From NCBI RefSeq assembly GCF_988243305.1, contig NZ_OZ547136.1: a DNA stretch of 64,000 nucleotides; one strand, 5' to 3'. The position numbers and the translations under genes were made by a program. The notes beneath the pieces are model-generated. The model saw only the letters and a program-made list of their open reading frames with translations, was not told where the DNA came from and did no database searches. Of the stretch, positions 8,031 to 21,294 are shown one piece after another; position 1 is the first letter of the stretch; each line of letters starts with the position of its first letter.

Positions 8031-8141
8031 AAACAGTTGGCAGACCAGAGGAGTCAGCAGAAAGATGAGCGGGAGTGTCGCCAGCATCGGGGACAGGGCT
8101 GATTTCCGCAATACCAGCGCCGGCATTGCAACACGTTTCAT
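8016..8141 (-). CDS. Hypothetical 41-aa hydrophobic peptide, translationally coupled to the AlpA-family gene
   Basis: MKRVAMPALVLRKSALSPMLATLPLIFLLTPLVCQLFVIIS; its ATG overlaps the alpA stop in an ATGA arrangement. Not in the ORF track (below 60 aa). Confidence 0.3.
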   Translation of the reverse strand: MKRVAMPALVLRKSALSPMLATLPLIFLLTPLVCQLFVIIS

Positions 8142-8371
8142 GCTGCTGCTCCTCGTGATTCCTCAATTCGCTGCTGCATCCACTGCTCCACTTCACTTTT
8201 GTACCAGCGGCTGCTGCGCCCCAGTTTGATGGGTTTAGGGAAATGACCTTCACTGATCAGCTTGTAAAACCATTTATCGGTCATACCGGTGAAACTGGTG
8301 ATGTAGTTCATGTCGATCAGGGGATCGTCGGCACGCAGTAACACGCTGTCGTGGCTTGTTGTGGTCAACAT
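8138..8371 (-). CDS. AlpA-family phage/island transcriptional regulator (excisionase-like HTH)
   Basis: 77 aa; ...YITSFTGMTDKWFYKLISEGHFPKPIKLGRSSRWYKSEVEQW matches AlpA-family DNA-binding proteins. Confidence 0.7.
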   Translation of the reverse strand: MLTTTSHDSVLLRADDPLIDMNYITSFTGMTDKWFYKLISEGHFPKPIKLGRSSRWYKSEVEQWMQQRIEESRGAAA

Positions 8372-8439
8372 GGTCAGAATGTCCTTTGTGAGATTTATGA
8401 AGTTTGTGCGAATGCAGGGAAAGATGCTGAACCGAGCTT

Positions 8440-9015
8440 TCAGAACGGTCCTGCAGATCCGGGATAGCCGGGATTACCGGCGAGGCAACGGGCTTCCGGA
8501 TCGCACACACCACGACGATCGCGGGCGAAATCACTGAACGCCCATATCAACTCTTTGAGGATGTTTTCACAGTCCGGTGAACGACTGTCCAGCACCACAT
8601 CCCGGGTGATCTGCTTCTGATACTGCTTTGCTTCACCCGGTGACGCGAAGCCCAGTACGTTGCTCCAGGCATCCAGAATCAGCCGGTCCAGTTCAGGGCC
8701 GTCGAAATACTCCTGTCTGACACACAGCACCACGTGGTATTCCGGCTTTTCAGGATGACGGGTCAGGAGCCAGCAGAGATCTCGTCCAGGTGTTGCATTC
8801 ATCAGCGCACTGACGGTTTCGATAAAGTCCATACCGAACCAGATCTTTCTGCTGCTGAAGGTACGGTCATATTCACATGGCAGACGAAGCAGGATCCGTC
8901 GTATCCGGGAGCCGGACTGCTCACGCAGCGCACGCTCAAGGACACCGATGATTTTGTTCTGATAAGACGGCCAGAAGGGTGCCAGGCTATAGTCGAAATA
9001 AGGGATAGCATTCAT
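8440..9015 (-). CDS. YfjJ/YagK-like (inovirus Gp2 family) island protein
   Basis: 191 aa from MNAIPYF (start trimmed from the ORF track); family assignment from memory of CP4-57-type islands. Confidence 0.45.
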   Translation of the reverse strand: MNAIPYFDYSLAPFWPSYQNKIIGVLERALREQSGSRIRRILLRLPCEYDRTFSSRKIWFGMDFIETVSALMNATPGRDLCWLLTRHPEKPEYHVVLCVRQEYFDGPELDRLILDAWSNVLGFASPGEAKQYQKQITRDVVLDSRSPDCENILKELIWAFSDFARDRRGVCDPEARCLAGNPGYPGSAGPF

Positions 9016-9272
9016 AAGATATGCTCCGTTATGCGCAGCCCACAATGCGTCCTGCCCGTGAATGAGCTGACGTGTTATAGCTTGCGGATGGGGTTGATGG
9101 AATAAGTGAAGAACCGAAGCAGAACGGGAAGATCAGGTCACCGACAAGGGACAGAACACCGGATGTGGTTAAGAGTGAATGATCTCCGTTGACTTCAGTT
9201 CACATCATTAAGCAAGGTGGTAAGGTTTTACCGACGGAATGTTTCCAGGACAGGAAGCTCAGGATTTAAGCT

Positions 9273-9839
9273 TCAGAAGTGAGGGTTACGAGGACGCCCT
9301 GCAGCAGGACGTTCAGGAACTTCATTGCAGCCGTAGGCACACAGCCCGTCTTTTTGCTCTTCTTTTGCCAGATAATGCAGGGCACCGCGAATATTATCGA
9401 TGCTTTCAGGATCGTTGTGGCGCACAGGAATGTTGATGTTGTATGTATAATGCGGCTGATATGTACAGCGGTGTGCCGAACCGCTGTTATGTGTAATAGA
9501 CCGCCAGCATTCCGTAATCCGCTCCGCAAAGGGATATATTTTTTTAACCCTCTGACGATCGATCCACAAAACCGCATGCGCATGAAAACCATGATCAGCC
9601 GTCCATTCAATCACCCAGAAGAAACCAACGATATTTTCAAATTGTTCCACCTGCTCCAGCAGCATACGCAACTGCAATTCAAGCCAGCGATGATCAGGTT
9701 GTAAGAAATCGGGCGTATCTTTCCTGTAGAAGAAATCCATCCGTAAGGCCCGCAGGCAGGAATAGCGTGCCATCATTTGATTGATGTGATTGTCAAGTAA
9801 AGCGGTAAAAAACCAGTTTGGTGTGTAAGATTTAGGCAT
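9273..9839 (-). CDS. YfjJ/YagK-like (inovirus Gp2 family) island protein
   Basis: 188 aa; HxH motif (FHAHAVLWIDRQ) as in Gp2-like proteins; adjacent paralogue at 8440-9015. Confidence 0.45.
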   Translation of the reverse strand: MPKSYTPNWFFTALLDNHINQMMARYSCLRALRMDFFYRKDTPDFLQPDHRWLELQLRMLLEQVEQFENIVGFFWVIEWTADHGFHAHAVLWIDRQRVKKIYPFAERITECWRSITHNSGSAHRCTYQPHYTYNINIPVRHNDPESIDNIRGALHYLAKEEQKDGLCAYGCNEVPERPAAGRPRNPHF

Positions 9840-10671
9840 GTTGATGACTCCTGAAAGTTAATGATGTTTTAAGCTCTGTGAACGAATTAATGCTTTCGCT
9901 CATAACGGTAATAACTTACAGATGGTATTTATCAGGCATGCTGTAGCAGAATGGATACGACGGGTTATTAACGATACGCAGCATTATGCAGAAAGAAATG
10001 GATTATCTGATGGTATTAGCTAAAGAGATGAGATAAACGAGGAGTAAAGAAAATACAGACTCAATAAAACATCACGAAATACTGTAAAATACGAGCTAAA
10101 ACCCCACTACCTGGAGATTAAGAAACATATTGCGACCAATCACATCATAAACTACAAACTTGCTCTCAGTGAGTCTGCAAAAACGTGTACAAGGCCAACA
10201 CATATCTGTAACCTGATAAAATCATACACTCTCATTTAATCTGTTAAAAACAACTCACTTCAAAACATGAGCGTTAACGGGTACACGGTACCAGAATAAA
10301 ATATACCATGGATGGATAATTTTCATTTTGTTTAACATACAAGATAATCAGAAACGAACAAATATAATCAGGAATTCACTCTGTTAATTTCATTGTTTAT
10401 CCTGCGCTGTTAAACATGACGAAATCATGGATACCTTATCAAAGAGTAAACATCCAGTTAATCAGTGATGACAGAAGTATTGATATTTACCAGAATAGTT
10501 AAAACACTTCAGGTCAACAACAATCATCGTTAAGTCAATACAGTTCATTATGGATAATGACTAAAATCAATTGCTGTTTCAGTGAAGACTGATAACAGGT
10601 AGATATTAGCAACAACGTAGTAAAATAACTTATCTGAGTATCGTATGAATTACAGTAGTTATGATTGAATG

Positions 10672-10721
10672 AAGGAGAAGGTGGAGAAGGTGGAGAAGGT
10701 GGAGAAGGTGGAGAAGGTGGA
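10672..10721. repeat. Tandem repeat, 9-bp unit GTGGAGAAG, about 5.5 copies
   Basis: Direct read: (g/a)aggagaag then gtggagaag x4 then gtgga; embedded in a purine-rich plus strand within a 1.3 kb AT-rich non-coding region. Confidence 0.9.
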
Positions 10722-11157
10722 TACCATGATAATGGTGGCAATGAAGATTAGACAAGGAAGGGAGTAAGTATAATCGGGTGAGGGTCAGAGTAATGGAATG
10801 AGTAAAGATAGAGAGTAAGTAAAAACAGAGTGAATAAAGACAAAGTGAATATAATTATAGTAATAAACCTAAATTAAAAATACTTGCGTATAATGGAAAG
10901 AAATAAGAATTAAGAATAGCGTATGAGTCGTAGTCATGACCTGGCTACAAAAAGTCATTCCATCTGGCTGTCATTCAGACACACTCCCCAAACATTCGAC
11001 TACAAAGTACTAACAGAAAATTAACTGATGTATTATTCTTCTGCCCTGAATGAACATCCGGAAGTATAATCTCCCCTAGCTTCACGTTCACCGGGAAAAA
11101 CGAAGCTATTTACTTTGATGATCGCTGACGAAAAACCGAACAGGCAGTTGCATAATC

Positions 11158-12252
11158 ATGGACAACAGAGAAAAAGAGATACTCAGGATCCTGCGTCACA
11201 ACCCACTGATCCAGCAGAATGAAATTGCTGAGATTTTACAAATCAGTCGGTCGCGTGTTGCTGCACACATTATGGATCTGATGCGCAAAGGTGCGATTAA
11301 AGGGAAAGGCTACATCCTGACAGAACAGGAATACTGTGTTGTTCTTGGGGCGATTAACATGGATATCCGTGGGGTGGCGGATATCCATTATCCACAGAAA
11401 TCCTCCAGTCCGGGCAGTATTTACTGCTCTGCCGGAGGTGTCGGACGCAACATCGCCCATAATCTCGCCCTTCTGGGCCGCAATGTGCATCTGATATCTG
11501 CTGTAGGCAATGATTTTTATGGCGAAACATTACTGGAGCAGACCCGCCTGGCCGGCGTTAATGTCACCAATTGTATTCGACTGAACGGACAAAATACTTC
11601 AACTTATGTCTCCATCGCCGACCTACAGGCAGAAACAGTGATGGCGATTAATGATACCCATATTCTGCAACAACTGACGCCGCAGTTGCTGGACGCCTCA
11701 CGTATGTTAATCCGTCACGCTGGCGTGGTGCTGGCTGACTGTAATCTGACACCTGCCGCCCTTGAATGGATCTTTACGGTCGCTGACGGCATTCCCGTTT
11801 TTATTGATACAGTGTCGAAATTTAAGGCTGTTAATGTAAAAAACTGGCTTCCGCATATCCATACCCTGAAACCCACACAAAAAGAACTGGAGATATTATG
11901 GGGTTCCCCTGTCAACAATGAGACCGATCTACTCACCGCAGTGAACGCACTACATCAGCAGGGTGTGCAACAGATTTTTGTCTGGATGGGAGATGAATCC
12001 GTTTTCTGTAGCCAAAGAGAGGGAGAACAATTTCTGCTCACACCGCCCGTTCATGCCGTTGTGGACAGCTTTGGTGCAGATGATGGCTTTATGGCAGGTC
12101 TGCTTTACAGTTTTCTGGAAGGAAGTAGTTTCCAGGAAAGTGCTCACTTTGCGATGGCATGTGCAGCACTGTCACGTGCCAGCACCAGCATCAATAACCC
12201 AACACTTTCCGTTAATAACGCGCAATATCTGTTAAAAACATCCCGGGGGTAA
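11158..12252 (+). CDS. YeiI-like protein: N-terminal winged-helix HTH fused to a PfkB-family sugar kinase domain
   Basis: 364 aa; N-terminal HTH (ILRILRHNPLIQQNEIAEILQISRSRVAAHI), PfkB motifs (GGVGRNIAHNLALLG; DSFGADDGFMAG). Confidence 0.65.
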   Translation: MDNREKEILRILRHNPLIQQNEIAEILQISRSRVAAHIMDLMRKGAIKGKGYILTEQEYCVVLGAINMDIRGVADIHYPQKSSSPGSIYCSAGGVGRNIAHNLALLGRNVHLISAVGNDFYGETLLEQTRLAGVNVTNCIRLNGQNTSTYVSIADLQAETVMAINDTHILQQLTPQLLDASRMLIRHAGVVLADCNLTPAALEWIFTVADGIPVFIDTVSKFKAVNVKNWLPHIHTLKPTQKELEILWGSPVNNETDLLTAVNALHQQGVQQIFVWMGDESVFCSQREGEQFLLTPPVHAVVDSFGADDGFMAGLLYSFLEGSSFQESAHFAMACAALSRASTSINNPTLSVNNAQYLLKTSRG

Positions 12253-16976: not shown

Positions 16977-17708
16977 TCACCTGCCATCCAGTAGACGCCC
17001 CGGCCCACGACTGCAACCATAATTACGTTGCCCGGAACCGTCATGCTGCTTCGTCTCATATTTCACGAGATAACTGGCTCTGTTCCGGGCTTTCTGCAGC
17101 GCTTCCACATCACCACGCTTGATCCAGAGCACAGCGGCTTCACCTGGCTTTTTGTCTGAAGCCTTCCTGGTATCAGAACATCCACCCGACAAAGGCGTGT
17201 CATCGGAAGAAGGGCGAGCATCAGACGATGTCGGTTTACGGGAAGGCGTCCACCTGGAAAAATGGACCAGGCCATCGCCTTGCCAGGGCTCAAGATGCAG
17301 GGCGCTGCACCATGCCTCCTGGATCATCGTCGCCAGCGAAGACGGTTCGCTGAAATCCCCGAGCGAGCACCAGGTATCTTTGTTGAGCAGTAATATCACG
17401 TGATAATGTTTCCTGCCATACATCTTGCCGAACTCCCGGCACCAGAAATAACGCAGGCTGGTTGCATGCACACGCTGATTGGCCCATCTTTTTTTCCGCT
17501 GGTAAGCCTGAATTTTGGCTTTCAGGGATGCGAAAAAACGGGAAATCACCGCTGAATCCGGATCGGGATCCATGATGGTGACAGGCATATACTCAGGGAA
17601 ACGTAAATCCACCCGGATTAACGAGACGGCACGGTGTTGCACCAGGGCACTGTTGAGAATACTTTCAAAACGGGATAACCAGTAATCATTGTGTATTGGT
17701 TGATTCAT
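16977..17708 (-). CDS. YfjJ/YagK-like (inovirus Gp2 family) island protein, third paralogue
   Basis: 243 aa; HYHVILLLNKDTW motif; resembles the proteins at 8440 and 9273. Confidence 0.45.
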   Translation of the reverse strand: MNQPIHNDYWLSRFESILNSALVQHRAVSLIRVDLRFPEYMPVTIMDPDPDSAVISRFFASLKAKIQAYQRKKRWANQRVHATSLRYFWCREFGKMYGRKHYHVILLLNKDTWCSLGDFSEPSSLATMIQEAWCSALHLEPWQGDGLVHFSRWTPSRKPTSSDARPSSDDTPLSGGCSDTRKASDKKPGEAAVLWIKRGDVEALQKARNRASYLVKYETKQHDGSGQRNYGCSRGPGRLLDGR

Positions 17709-18377
17709 GATGAGAGATCTCCGTTGATTTGGATTGACTTCACATCATTAATCACTGCGGTAAAACTTTACGGCATCCCGCCATTGAGCAACGCCAATGG
17801 CTCCTGATTAAAACAGAATGAATCGTCCCGTAACGAAAAGATAATCCTGCACACGACAGCAAAACGTAAAACAACAGCATGAATGAGCTAAATGTCTAAA
17901 GAAAAACTGCCTTTTCACATTATTTTTCAGCGAGTAATCATACCAGCATCCCTAACATACGAAATCGCATCGTGATCGATCGCTGATTCGCCGAACAACT
18001 GATCGAATACACCGGAATCTGCACTAACATCCTGATGGGTAACGGAAGACTAAAAAACCAGTGTTCTATTGATTGCACGGAATGCCTGTGCGCTGGCCTG
18101 ACCAGTAAGCACAATTCTACGAGTAGTAAGATATCTACTCCAAAACCATGCGCAGTAGCCACCATATGTTGCCAGGGTGAAAAATAAGCTCAGAGCTATA
18201 GGGGAGTAATTCCCGTTAATGTCATCGCCGTACCTCAATCAGCTCACAAACTGGCTGAAACGTTAAGCTGAGGCCTTTATTCTTCAGATGTATTTTCCGG
18301 TTTACCTGTAAATTATCTTCTGATATTTATCACATTAGTAATTGTGCTGATTATCTACATACTTCAAGGTCTGAAAT

Positions 18378-18908
18378 ATGAAGCTAACAGAAGAAAGTCT
18401 GAATCTAGTCATTGACATCCTGAATGATTTGATCTGTGAAGGAAAAATGCTGAACGATGTGGAGCGCAGATCTCTGCTCAATGCAGTTATGGCAATTACA
18501 GCGGTAAAAGAACGTTCTGTCGTATCTGTATCATCCCGAAAAGAGCAAAGTAAGAAGGAGAAGAAGGAAAGAGAGATCGATCCTCGTTTCCCAAATGCTG
18601 GTGTGGCATGGAATGAGGCAGACGAGAGTTTATTGCGAGATGTTCTGGAGGATGTACCGGACGATGAAATTGGTAAACACCTTTTCTGGCTAGCAGAGAA
18701 ACTAGGGCGAACCCCGTACAGTGTAGCCTGTAAAGTCAGACAAATTAAGAAATTACCTGCAGAATGGAAGGATCAATTTCGTAAAATCTCTGACAGGATC
18801 CGTAGTTCTGGAATGTCAGTCAGTGAATATCTACAACGCCAGGGACTGTTAAGCCCAGAGTCAGGGGAAGAAAACAATCCTGTCAGTCATAACAACAATG
18901 TAGCTTAA
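18378..18908 (+). CDS. Hypothetical protein, 176 aa, lysine/glutamate-rich linker
   Basis: ORF on coding-like sequence bounded by AT-rich non-coding DNA; no recognisable motif. Confidence 0.45.
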   Translation: MKLTEESLNLVIDILNDLICEGKMLNDVERRSLLNAVMAITAVKERSVVSVSSRKEQSKKEKKEREIDPRFPNAGVAWNEADESLLRDVLEDVPDDEIGKHLFWLAEKLGRTPYSVACKVRQIKKLPAEWKDQFRKISDRIRSSGMSVSEYLQRQGLLSPESGEENNPVSHNNNVA

Positions 18909-20070
18909 TCCTGAAGAAGATGAACAGTTTATACTCTTTAAACTGTTCCCTTAATTTTAGAAAAACAGTTTGTGTAAGTGCATGCTCCAACATTCTGAAG
19001 GCGTTATTTCTTACAATACATCATAATCATTGGCAGATCCTCATCTGAATCAAAACACCACAACCAATCATCACACTTTTTCTGAAAAGAGCCTTATGAT
19101 GAAGATAATCACCTTACGCTGAGAAAAAACACCAGGGCCAGTTAATCACCTTATCAATCTCGCCGTTACAAAATCATCCATAAGCCATTTAACAGTGTTA
19201 TCGCAAACTCACAGTAAATCGCATCAGGTTACCTCAATCGGATTTGAGTTAATTCACTGGGCTTTACGTAAAGATACTTTTCTCAGGTTAACGACTAAAA
19301 CACGAAAACTCAGAAAAGGTTAAACACAGGTTCAGTAAAATCGAATATCATCTTGATTGCTTAAACAGGACAGAGGGTTTTGTAGTGAGGTTAACTGATT
19401 TTAGCGATCGTAAAAAAAGGACTAACAAATTTACTAAACTGGATGTGTTTCAGACAAAGCAATGTGTACAGCAATGCTTAATGAAAATACTTGTATGATT
19501 GTCTATGAAAATGCGTGTATAACACTTAGTGAAGATATGTCTGTATAATACGTATATAGTACCATTCCCGACATTCTCAATATCTTCAGACATCCATGCA
19601 GACTGAGTGTTGATTTCAGTTTTTCACGGCCAGCATGGATCTTTACTGGTCAAAAAACAGACAGGTTTACTCTGGAATTATTTTTTTGATTCCGTCTTCA
19701 GAACAACAAAAACTCGTGATAACTCTACAACAAACTATCGTAATTGGCTTCTGTAACCCCGTCACTTTTCCTAAGAAACGTGCCCCCATATGATGCGGGA
19801 GAGATAAGTCATCGTATACAGGAAACACTGCCAATCATAATATGGCGTCATTCAGTAATTTTTATCCATAATCAGATTAGCATATCATGATTATTGAATA
19901 TTATGATATATAGCTCATATGAATGTGTTATTATCTGTAAGCGTTAAGCATCACATTGCATAACCATACTAAGCTGGCTAATCATCAACATTTTTATATG
20001 TAACTCATTGAAATTAATTATATGTTTTTTGTGAATAATTAATATGTAATGTGAAATTAATATTTTTACA

Positions 20071-21294
20071 TCATGAGCGCCATTTAAAATTACCATCCTG
20101 AATATCATATGACAATATATTTTCACTAAAGCATGAATTGTATATGTCTATTAACTCTGGAAAATTATCAGGATTCACCTTCAAATTCACTTGAATGTTA
20201 CGCTTAATTTCACCCAGCAGTTCTTCATGTGTGGATTTTATTATCCCTTTCTCATAATCGATAAATACACACATGTTCTTTATGAATTCAAAACCTTTTC
20301 CTGTATACAGTTTAATGAATGCCACCAGAGCAAACATTTCAAGATATAGCCATAATGCCACGTTAGTTTTTTGCAAAGTATAAAAAATTGAATTCGCCAC
20401 TCTTTTACTTATTGCTCTTTTATACTGTGATCGAGCAAGATTCAGTAGCGGAAGCTCTCGTTCAATAAATGAATGTGAAAAGACTGGATAAATTGATGTA
20501 GGAAACCTTTCAGGTCTTATGATATTTTCTATTTCCACCATAAATCTATCCATAGAAAGAAAGTCACTTTCTTTTTTTATTCTGGTATAGAGACCGCCTT
20601 TATTTCTTTCTGAGGTTTGTTTTCGTGCTATCCCCCCCAACACTTTCTCTAATTGTTTATTTATCTTCGTATAATTAAATACAACCATTCTTCTTATCAT
20701 CCTCGGAAGGATAATAATATCAGTGCTTGAATCACTTGAGCGGCAATTATTATTTATCCATGCAACTTCAAGTTGCAGTATCGGAACATTAACTTTTCTG
20801 GGGTGAATATCTCTCTGATATCGTTTTTTGTATGCGTTTTCATTAAGATATTCTCTGCTGTAGAGAAACTTATAGCAATATAATCTGATAATATCTTTTA
20901 TGTAAAATTTAAATAGTTCACCTGTAACAGATATATGTTTTCTGCTCAGTAACTCCTGTGTATTAAGCCATTCCCGTGACCGAAGCACACCCTTGTGAAA
21001 ACTTTTTCTTACTTGCTTTGAAGCACGCCATTGATGTAATATTTTTGCGTCCTCAATAATTCTCTTTCCCGTTTTATTTTTTGCAGCATCTCTTACTCTA
21101 TAAAATATCTCCCAGTCCAGACTTTTGTCATATCTACTAATTATACGACAAATATTCCTGACCCGACGATTCTCTTTATTTCGCTTCCATAGCTTATAAT
21201 GATCATCGCATAACCTTAAGGCATTTGCCTCATCAAATTCTGAAACAGGATTACTGCATTTTTTATTCCGACAGATACCTTTGTTTTTAGCCAT
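20071..21294 (-). CDS. Hypothetical basic protein, 407 aa, N-terminal Cys/His cluster (CRNKKCSNPV...CDDH), very AT-rich gene
   Basis: Long uninterrupted ORF in AT-rich DNA, divergent from the GTPase gene; no family recognised. Confidence 0.5.
   Translation of the reverse strand: MAKNKGICRNKKCSNPVSEFDEANALRLCDDHYKLWKRNKENRRVRNICRIISRYDKSLDWEIFYRVRDAAKNKTGKRIIEDAKILHQWRASKQVRKSFHKGVLRSREWLNTQELLSRKHISVTGELFKFYIKDIIRLYCYKFLYSREYLNENAYKKRYQRDIHPRKVNVPILQLEVAWINNNCRSSDSSTDIIILPRMIRRMVVFNYTKINKQLEKVLGGIARKQTSERNKGGLYTRIKKESDFLSMDRFMVEIENIIRPERFPTSIYPVFSHSFIERELPLLNLARSQYKRAISKRVANSIFYTLQKTNVALWLYLEMFALVAFIKLYTGKGFEFIKNMCVFIDYEKGIIKSTHEELLGEIKRNIQVNLKVNPDNFPELIDIYNSCFSENILSYDIQDGNFKWRS

Follow-up and report, generated by a model that had tools for sequence, protein, structure and literature searches.

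A polymorphic 9-bp tandem array in the gene-free backbone DNA of an integrative island

Introduction

Intergenic variable-number tandem repeats (VNTRs) with short units are known from Escherichia coli, in which they are used for strain typing by multiple-locus VNTR analysis (MLVA). Origins used by HUH-type Rep nucleases provide a second point of reference: the origin of phage Ff is part of the intergenic region immediately upstream of gene II, other HUH Rep origins have binding repeats beside a nick hairpin, as with the iterons that stand beside the nick hairpin of geminivirus and circovirus Rep, and pMV158 has a bind locus. In the transfer-messenger RNA (tmRNA)-associated genomic islands of Pseudomonas, a Gp2-like gene followed by alpA forms part of the core at one end of the element (PMC12595487). 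Here we analyse positions 9840–11157 of a 64-kb stretch of DNA (positions 1–64000; hereafter the window), a gene-free stretch that carries a 9-bp tandem array and that RefSeq annotation places within an integrative island. The stretch lies between a Gp2-type gene on its left (minus strand) and a yeiI-like gene on its right (plus strand), confirming the divergent orientation recognized in an earlier interpretation made from the letters alone (the sequence-only reading).

A perfect 9-bp array that changes in whole units

Tandem Repeats Finder reports the array at 10674–10721 on the plus strand, with a period of 9, the unit GGAGAAGGT, 5.3 copies, 100% matches, 0 indels and a score of 96, which makes it the top-scoring tandem repeat of the entire window. 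Read in the register GTGGAGAAG, it comprises four perfect units and two partial ones, and the earlier description of about 5.5 copies at 10672–10721 was therefore a fair one. To follow the array through other strains, we searched E. coli genomes with a 361-bp query around it and fetched one genome per match length. Full-length matches span 343, 352, 361, 370, 379, 388 and 406 bp, and all of the differences between them are multiples of 9. Reading the arrays directly, always with identical flanks, gave alleles of 3, 4, 5, 6, 7, 8 and 10 perfect units; alleles of 2 and 9 units were deduced from the match spans of the zero-copy query described next.

A zero-copy query, in which the left flank is joined directly to the right flank, located the array locus in 370 of 5,426 complete E. 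coli genomes (about 7%), in accessory island DNA, with spans equal to 2 to 10 units and thus nine alleles. Three units are carried by about 238 of the 370 genomes (a count obtained by subtraction) and four or more by 125 (sampled rows: 4, 4, 5, 6, 6, 6, 7, 8, 8, 9, 9 and 10); a further 7 genomes fall in the two-unit band, the single sampled member of which has 2 units. In five metagenome contigs, the same flanks enclose 3, 3, 6, 6 and 7 units. The comparison across related genomes that the sequence-only reading had proposed thus returned not an invariant number but the strain-to-strain variation that it had anticipated, between identical flanks.

The DNA around the array is far more uniform. 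Outside the array, the 1,316 bp between both start codons contain 0–3 single-nucleotide polymorphisms (SNPs) among seven alleles. One haplotype includes arrays of 4, 5 and 6 units with 0 SNPs in the 1,316 bp, a second includes arrays of 7, 8 and 10 units, and a third has 3 units. Because several array lengths occur per SNP haplotype, the array alters faster than the whole flank gains point mutations, and whole-unit change that is quicker than point mutation of the flank is the signature of replication slippage. The array is a VNTR by all three defining properties: its copies run head to tail, their number varies between strains with constant flanks, and change by whole units outpaces point mutation. 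The repeat sequence has no match in the searchable literature, so the array is not evidently a described marker; the class is well known, and this particular locus appears to be undescribed.

Other lineages lack the array at this position. The copy on plasmid pNDM5_LS003 has a single unit (TGGAGAAGGTGGATACC), and no tandem repeat was detected in that copy; UTI89 and strain H3 have one degenerate unit (GAAGGAAGTGGATA); and Res13, L011 and pSCU106 have TGGAGTG(G/A)ATA. The array thus arose by expansion of a purine-rich seed within the window lineage. To the right of the array, the purine-rich segment varies from lineage to lineage in both length and content, between blocks that are conserved on both sides; for example, a 66-bp block (about 10766–10830) is missing from UTI89 and H3. 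Judging from these alignments, the segment behaves as duplication-prone DNA.

The unit also occurs far from the island. When the exact 27-mer (GGAGAAGGT)x3 was searched in metagenomes, 115 of 120 matches lay in unrelated organisms, so the 9-bp unit alone is not diagnostic of the island. These unrelated environmental contigs, at least 115 in number, carry arrays of up to 11 units, mostly within long open reading frames (ORFs; median open frame 269 codons), and presumably represent coding low-complexity repeats.

Composition of the stretch

The stretch is AT-rich, as had been claimed: its G+C content is 35.5%, compared with 49.0% for the window, and equal AT-richness is reached in only 3.8% of 1-kb windows. 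Its TpA steps are 1.9 times as frequent as the window mean, its A+T content is 64.5% and the DNA is horizontally acquired, a composition that would fit silenced foreign DNA; the density of A-tracts is ordinary. Related islands carry H-NS-family genes of their own a few kilobases from the Gp2-type module (L004 6100–6318; L005 6900–7250). The most AT-rich kilobase of the window lies elsewhere, at 19916–20915 (30.7% G+C), and includes a degenerate 22-bp tandem repeat at 20009–20061, just upstream of an ORF at 20071–21294.

Around the array, the strand bias is extreme. The 200 nucleotides (nt) from 10667 are 77.5% purine, the highest value among about 63,800 windows of 200 nt, and consist of 42% A, 35% G, 19% T and 4% C. 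A T interrupts the purines about every 5 nt, and there is no unbroken purine run of 15 nt or more. The strong purine skew noted earlier is thus borne out and the term 'polypurine tract' is not: the tract is C-depleted and purine-rich. Delimited at 10660–10866 on the plus strand (77% purine, 4% C), it shows many indels between lineages and contains a second Tandem Repeats Finder call, a 15-bp unit repeated 2.7 times at 10812–10851. The longest pure purine run of the window (25 nt, 18552–18576) sits outside the stretch, within an ORF at 18378–18908.

Backbone DNA joined to cargo

The stretch belongs to E. coli; it is complete in 376 of the 5,426 complete E. coli genomes and partial in about 1,200 more. 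Diverged copies in UTI89, strain H3, Res13, a metagenome-assembled genome (MAG) and plasmid pNDM5_LS003 align to its left part with 80–95% identity, interrupted by a divergent block at 10200–10400. Similarity runs from the Gp2 start codon to about 10885 (...CCTAAATTAAAA) and then ends. In UTI89, H3, Res13, the MAG and pNDM5_LS003, which is an IncI plasmid, a gene-free stretch of 960–1,600 bp follows a module of Gp2-type, hypothetical and AlpA genes, and beyond it comes strain-dependent DNA: dsdA, IS1414, IS3 or a YfjI-family gene. In other strains, the left piece adjoins the psu-like genes. As the left piece is joined to differing cargo, 9840 to about 10885 belongs to the island backbone and the remaining 270 bp or so to the cargo side. 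The sequence-only reading, which placed the region upstream of the yeiI-like gene, missed that 9840 to about 10885 is backbone tied to the Gp2-type/AlpA operon and that no more than the last 270 bp or so go with the yeiI-like gene. This gene-free, AT-rich backbone of about 1,045 bp (9840–10885) is conserved upstream of the operon; its identity to the diverged copies is about that of the flanking genes, that is, it is conserved no more than its surroundings.

The operon begins with the Gp2-type gene (9273–9839, minus strand), which encodes a 188-amino-acid (aa) probable HUH endonuclease annotated as 'YagK/YfjJ domain / inovirus-type Gp2'. It is followed on the same strand by a hypothetical gene for a 201-aa protein (8440–9045), which is annotated in every module copy and has no Pfam or NCBIfam match, and by the last gene of the module, an AlpA-family regulator (8138–8371; Pfam Phage_AlpA, E value 2e-10). 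On the other side, the cargo-specific upstream region (10886–11157, plus strand), where similarity to other lineages has stopped, contains a TATAAT hexamer at 10890–10895 that is visible directly in the sequence and is a candidate promoter element. The yeiI-like gene that follows (11158–12252, plus strand) encodes a 364-aa protein with a helix-turn-helix (HTH) domain and a PfkB sugar kinase domain (NCBIfam PRK09954, 732 bits against a cut-off of 561; Pfam PfkB and HTH_24) and heads a pseudouridine-utilization-like cargo block.

Strain 405 carries the 8-unit allele together with a Gp2-type gene annotated as frameshifted (L007 255–820); the stretch and the array can thus outlast the loss of this gene. 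Plasmid pSCU-106-1 (L020 4001–4312) and seven similar IncK/IncI-type conjugative plasmids have the right-hand part only (about 10502–10882), truncated by IS66-family elements and adjoining the siderophore receptor gene ireA. ARAGORN found no tRNA or tmRNA gene in window positions 1–64000, despite the island content, and the integration site is hence out of view. A collection of phages gave no match to the stretch. Transfer of knowledge from strain K-12 was ruled out, as neither CP4-6 nor CP4-57 resembles the stretch or the Gp2-type gene at the DNA level.

No evidence for a product of the stretch

We found no evidence for a protein or RNA product of the stretch. In agreement with the sequence-only reading, which saw no credible ORF, the longest reading frame has 68 aa, lies on the minus strand and reads the repeat as a Pro/Ser run; the rest are of 41 aa or fewer, and no ORF is conserved in the diverged copies. 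Two short frames deserve mention. A 32-aa ORF across the array (MKEKVEKV...; 10669–10767, plus strand) was judged from the ORF list and the lineage alignment to be no gene: its ATG is not preceded by a visible Shine–Dalgarno sequence, most of the changes that separate it from the UTI89 version are non-synonymous, and the type represented by Res13, L011 and pSCU106 lacks it. A 13-codon ORF, MIMVAMKIRQGRE, has a good Shine–Dalgarno-like sequence, AAGGTGGA, 5 nt before its ATG and occurs in the window, pNDM5_LS003, UTI89 and H3 only. Neither of the two has a family match. NCBI's Prokaryotic Genome Annotation Pipeline (PGAP) calls 'hypothetical proteins' of 41–47 aa across the array only when there are 8 or more units (WP_157908324.1 and WP_258228948.1; located at L002 3830–3973 and L007 1650–1775, which correspond to window positions 10669–10767), and these entries probably arise merely from repeat length. 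A decayed gene was rejected as well: in tblastn searches, neither the module proteins of the window nor the proteins encoded beside Gp2-type genes of distant relatives revealed a remnant in the stretch, a result limited to those proteins, as no general six-frame search of a large protein database was made.

At the RNA level, Rfam at a permissive E-value returned just two sub-threshold matches, to small nucleolar RNAs, and a known RNA family was rejected on this basis. Promoter-like and terminator-like sites occur in the stretch at chance frequency (for promoter-like sites, 4 found versus 6.2 expected). A fold z-score scan of both strands gave a sole outlier, a long imperfect hairpin at 10300–10435 on the minus strand (RNA −36.9 kcal/mol, z = −3.8). 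Each arm of this hairpin exists in two haplotypes, and the matched combinations fold at −41 and −31 kcal/mol. Both natural recombinants with mixed arms fold near background, with a single example per combination; because the hairpin is not kept in these recombinant haplotypes, selection for it is unlikely, and the predicted structure is probably not selected. RNAalifold found no covariation in the conserved blocks (terms +0.31 and +0.40). A conserved structured leader or small RNA was therefore rejected, the hairpin being broken in the recombinants and covariation absent.

The Gp2-type neighbour and candidate operator sites

The Gp2-type protein has invariant HxH and YxxK motifs, and the best structural matches of its confident model are the Rep nucleases SIRV1 ORF119, parvovirus NS1 and AAV Rep. 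Relatives of the protein are named 'rolling circle replication-associated protein' in the sources. Motifs and model make an HUH nuclease of the neighbour probable; literature searches for YagK/YfjJ turned up no functional work on the family.

Two inverted repeats close to the Gp2-type gene look like operator sites and are predicted as such. The first is a palindrome, TGAGCGAA-N8-TTCG(T/C)TCA, at 9879–9902 on the minus strand, 40–63 nt before the Gp2 start codon; all six copies retain it, and the UTI89 version is perfect. The second, TTATCTGAT-N16-ATGAGATAA, lies at 10003–10036, and its arms are invariant in five diverged copies, the spacer varying in Res13. The invariance of these arms would be weak evidence of a function, because the surrounding sequence is also conserved. 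As candidates for a nick hairpin, these two small inverted repeats are conserved but show no covariation, and the sole strong hairpin is the one at 10300–10435, which is not maintained. The window lineage lacks 12 bp (AATCAGATCTAA) that are found in all other lineages at about 9904, 65 bp upstream of the Gp2 start and adjoining the palindrome TGAGCGAA-N8-TTCGYTCA.

A second Gp2-family gene (243 aa; 16977–17708, minus strand) lies 7 kb off and shares 22% identity with the first over the HUH region. It has a gene-free stretch of its own upstream (669 bp; 17709–18377), without the array or the inverted repeats of 9879–10036. In Citrobacter, Salmonella diarizonae, Enterobacter and Mixta (L012–L017), the gene order is reversed and runs AlpA, a well-conserved 197–207-aa protein, Gp2. 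The order in the window (8138–9839) is Gp2, then a 201-aa protein unrelated to the 197–207-aa protein of those relatives, then AlpA. An origin of transfer upstream of a relaxase was also considered and rejected, as the MOB_M class of a recent preprint (10.64898/2026.01.13.699239) is tyrosine-recombinase-like and unrelated to the Gp2-type protein.

Discussion

We consider it probable that the stretch is upstream regulatory or spacer DNA of foreign composition that carries a slippage-driven, near-neutral array. The alignments show two joined pieces, a backbone of about 1,045 bp on the left and, on the right, the upstream region of the cargo yeiI-like gene, of about 270 bp. The purine-rich, C-poor segment lies towards the distal end of the backbone piece. 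There, a single GGAGAAGGT seed expanded in the window lineage into a perfect head-to-tail array, and replication slippage now adds or removes whole 9-bp units more quickly than point mutations build up in the surrounding 1.3 kb. The backbone piece may act as promoter, regulatory or spacer region of the Gp2/AlpA operon, this AT-rich foreign DNA is probably kept quiet by H-NS-type silencing, and the length of the array itself may have little or no functional consequence. We infer the regulatory or spacer role, the silencing and the near-neutrality, and several observations weigh against them. The stretch yielded no convincing sigma-70 promoter for the Gp2 operon. The high-affinity H-NS motif (TCGATAAATT-like) is not enriched, with one 2-mismatch match in the stretch and a whole-window count at chance. 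About 1 kb of gene-free DNA, kept across lineages that differ by 10–20%, is long for a plain promoter region and leaves room for an unrecognized cis-acting function. Finally, HUH nucleases, to which the neighbour probably belongs, normally have their target site in nearby DNA.

That last point leads to an alternative in which the gene-free stretch is the cis-acting origin, or nick-and-bind region, of the HUH-type Gp2, which would replicate or mobilize the excised island there and use the direct repeats as binding repeats. The Rep-like motifs and model of the neighbour and the names of its relatives argue for such an origin, as does the stretch itself, which is AT-rich, bears direct repeats and is co-inherited with the Gp2-type gene, a plasmid included. 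A gene for a probable HUH nuclease is thus adjacent, but conservation of the repeats or the stretch does not extend to every occurrence of the Rep gene. No other lineage has the array; relatives of about 50% identity have AlpA, the 197-aa gene and Gp2 without an AT-rich gap; most distant relatives and K-12 have no such gap either; and in the sole distant relative that does have one, the array is missing. No hairpin stood out clearly as a conserved nick site, and an iteron-like series of GAGTRA motifs, which is enriched when that specific motif is counted, was rejected after an unbiased test of 6-mer multiplicity gave P = 0.11. We regard an origin as unlikely on this evidence. A more elaborate version, in which the stretch is the target of the HUH-type Gp2 for replicating or mobilizing the excised island, this activity is coupled transcriptionally to AlpA-controlled excision and the repeat number alters how many protein copies are bound, would be quite unlikely. 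The array could also be a contingency locus that tunes expression, with the number of units affecting how protein-binding sites are spaced, how many there are or where a long leader begins, and thereby setting the expression of Gp2/AlpA (and hence excision) or of the yeiI-like gene. With nine alleles, it is hypervariable in comparison with its flanks; divergent genes stand on either side of it, a weak minus-strand promoter-like site (10755 to 10726) would start transcription at its edge, and each 9-bp step would turn the helical phase by roughly 50 degrees. However, some 835–880 bp separate the array from the start codon of Gp2 and about 440 bp from that of the yeiI-like gene, and the array, at 48 bp or more, lies outside any −35/−10 spacer. 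Contingency loci have a non-triplet unit in a coding frame or a repeat in a promoter spacer; here, the 9-bp unit preserves the frame, which makes on/off frameshifting impossible, and no conserved ORF crosses the array. The promoter-like site is one of the 4 found where 6.2 are expected by chance, the alleles look stable within clonal groups, and many unrelated isolates have 3 units at the same chromosomal position. A tuning role is, in our assessment, about as unlikely as an origin.

The two remaining alternatives are weaker. The stretch might encode a small product, either a protein across the repeat (MKEKVEKV...), the 13-codon ORF MIMVAMKIRQGRE or a small RNA. The annotated 41–47-aa proteins across longer arrays, the well-placed AAGGTGGA that the window shares with pNDM5_LS003, UTI89 and H3, and the minus-strand hairpin could each be taken in its favour. 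However, neither ORF has relatives in known families, lineage differences are mostly non-synonymous, the Res13, L011 and pSCU106 type lacks the start codon and the PGAP calls follow array length alone; for an RNA, there is no Rfam match, terminator or covariation, and the hairpin is broken in natural recombinants. Such a product is very unlikely. Least credible is a function of the purine-rich tract through non-B DNA, either triplex H-DNA or a G-quadruplex. The sequence-only reading had suggested that the tract can adopt such structures, and the strong purine/pyrimidine strand asymmetry and two weak two-tetrad GG motifs inside the array are compatible with this idea. Yet mirror repeats with arms of at least 8 nt, G3+ quadruplex motifs and purine runs of 15 nt or longer are all missing from the tract, which makes canonical H-DNA or G-quadruplex formation unlikely and leaves that suggestion unsupported; the potential for slipped strands, as in any tandem array, is the only non-B option left. 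We give a non-B function hardly any credence and retain the regulatory or spacer interpretation with a near-neutral array.

In practical terms, the array is a clean and highly polymorphic marker, with nine alleles and perfect units, that could help to discriminate between island-bearing strains. It is also a likely spot for errors in short-read assembly and yields spurious 'hypothetical protein' calls that depend on length alone. The more interesting point lies around the repeat, in about 1 kb of gene-free DNA that islands and a plasmid with differing cargo have in common, inherited jointly with AlpA and a probable HUH nuclease as a backbone module. A site of action of the nuclease in the stretch, if there were one, would bear on the replication and movement of the island, although present evidence does not favour it; an origin there would give a mechanism to the core module of many enterobacterial and, according to PMC12595487, Pseudomonas genomic islands.

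The locus can be placed against five known systems. The Pseudomonas tmRNA-associated islands (PMC12595487) have, as here, an end module with a Gp2-like gene and alpA, a likeness that rests on gene content; they belong to another genus, and the paper on them describes neither a repeat nor a long gene-free stretch preceding the Gp2-like gene. HUH Rep origins, such as the Ff intergenic region, the geminivirus and circovirus iterons and the pMV158 bind locus, resemble the present locus as a gene-free, AT-rich, repeat-bearing stretch beside a probable HUH nuclease gene, and differ from it in that no nick hairpin was identified here, the repeats are not kept across lineages and relatives, and there is no similarity to any phage record. 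With H-NS-silenced, AT-rich acquired DNA, the stretch shares the character of a TpA-rich foreign island (35.5% versus 49% G+C) whose relatives encode H-NS paralogues nearby; this likeness rests on composition, as the high-affinity motif is not enriched and A-tracts are of ordinary density. The simple-sequence contingency loci of Neisseria and Haemophilus also change repeat number by slippage near genes, whereas here the 9-bp unit is frame-neutral, lies outside any gene or promoter spacer and hundreds of base pairs from either start codon, and is known from between-strain comparison. From the intergenic VNTRs of E. coli used in MLVA, the array differs in occupying accessory island DNA found in about 7% of complete genomes (370 of 5,426), and it is like them in its perfect head-to-tail units, conserved flanks, stepwise change by whole units and many alleles.

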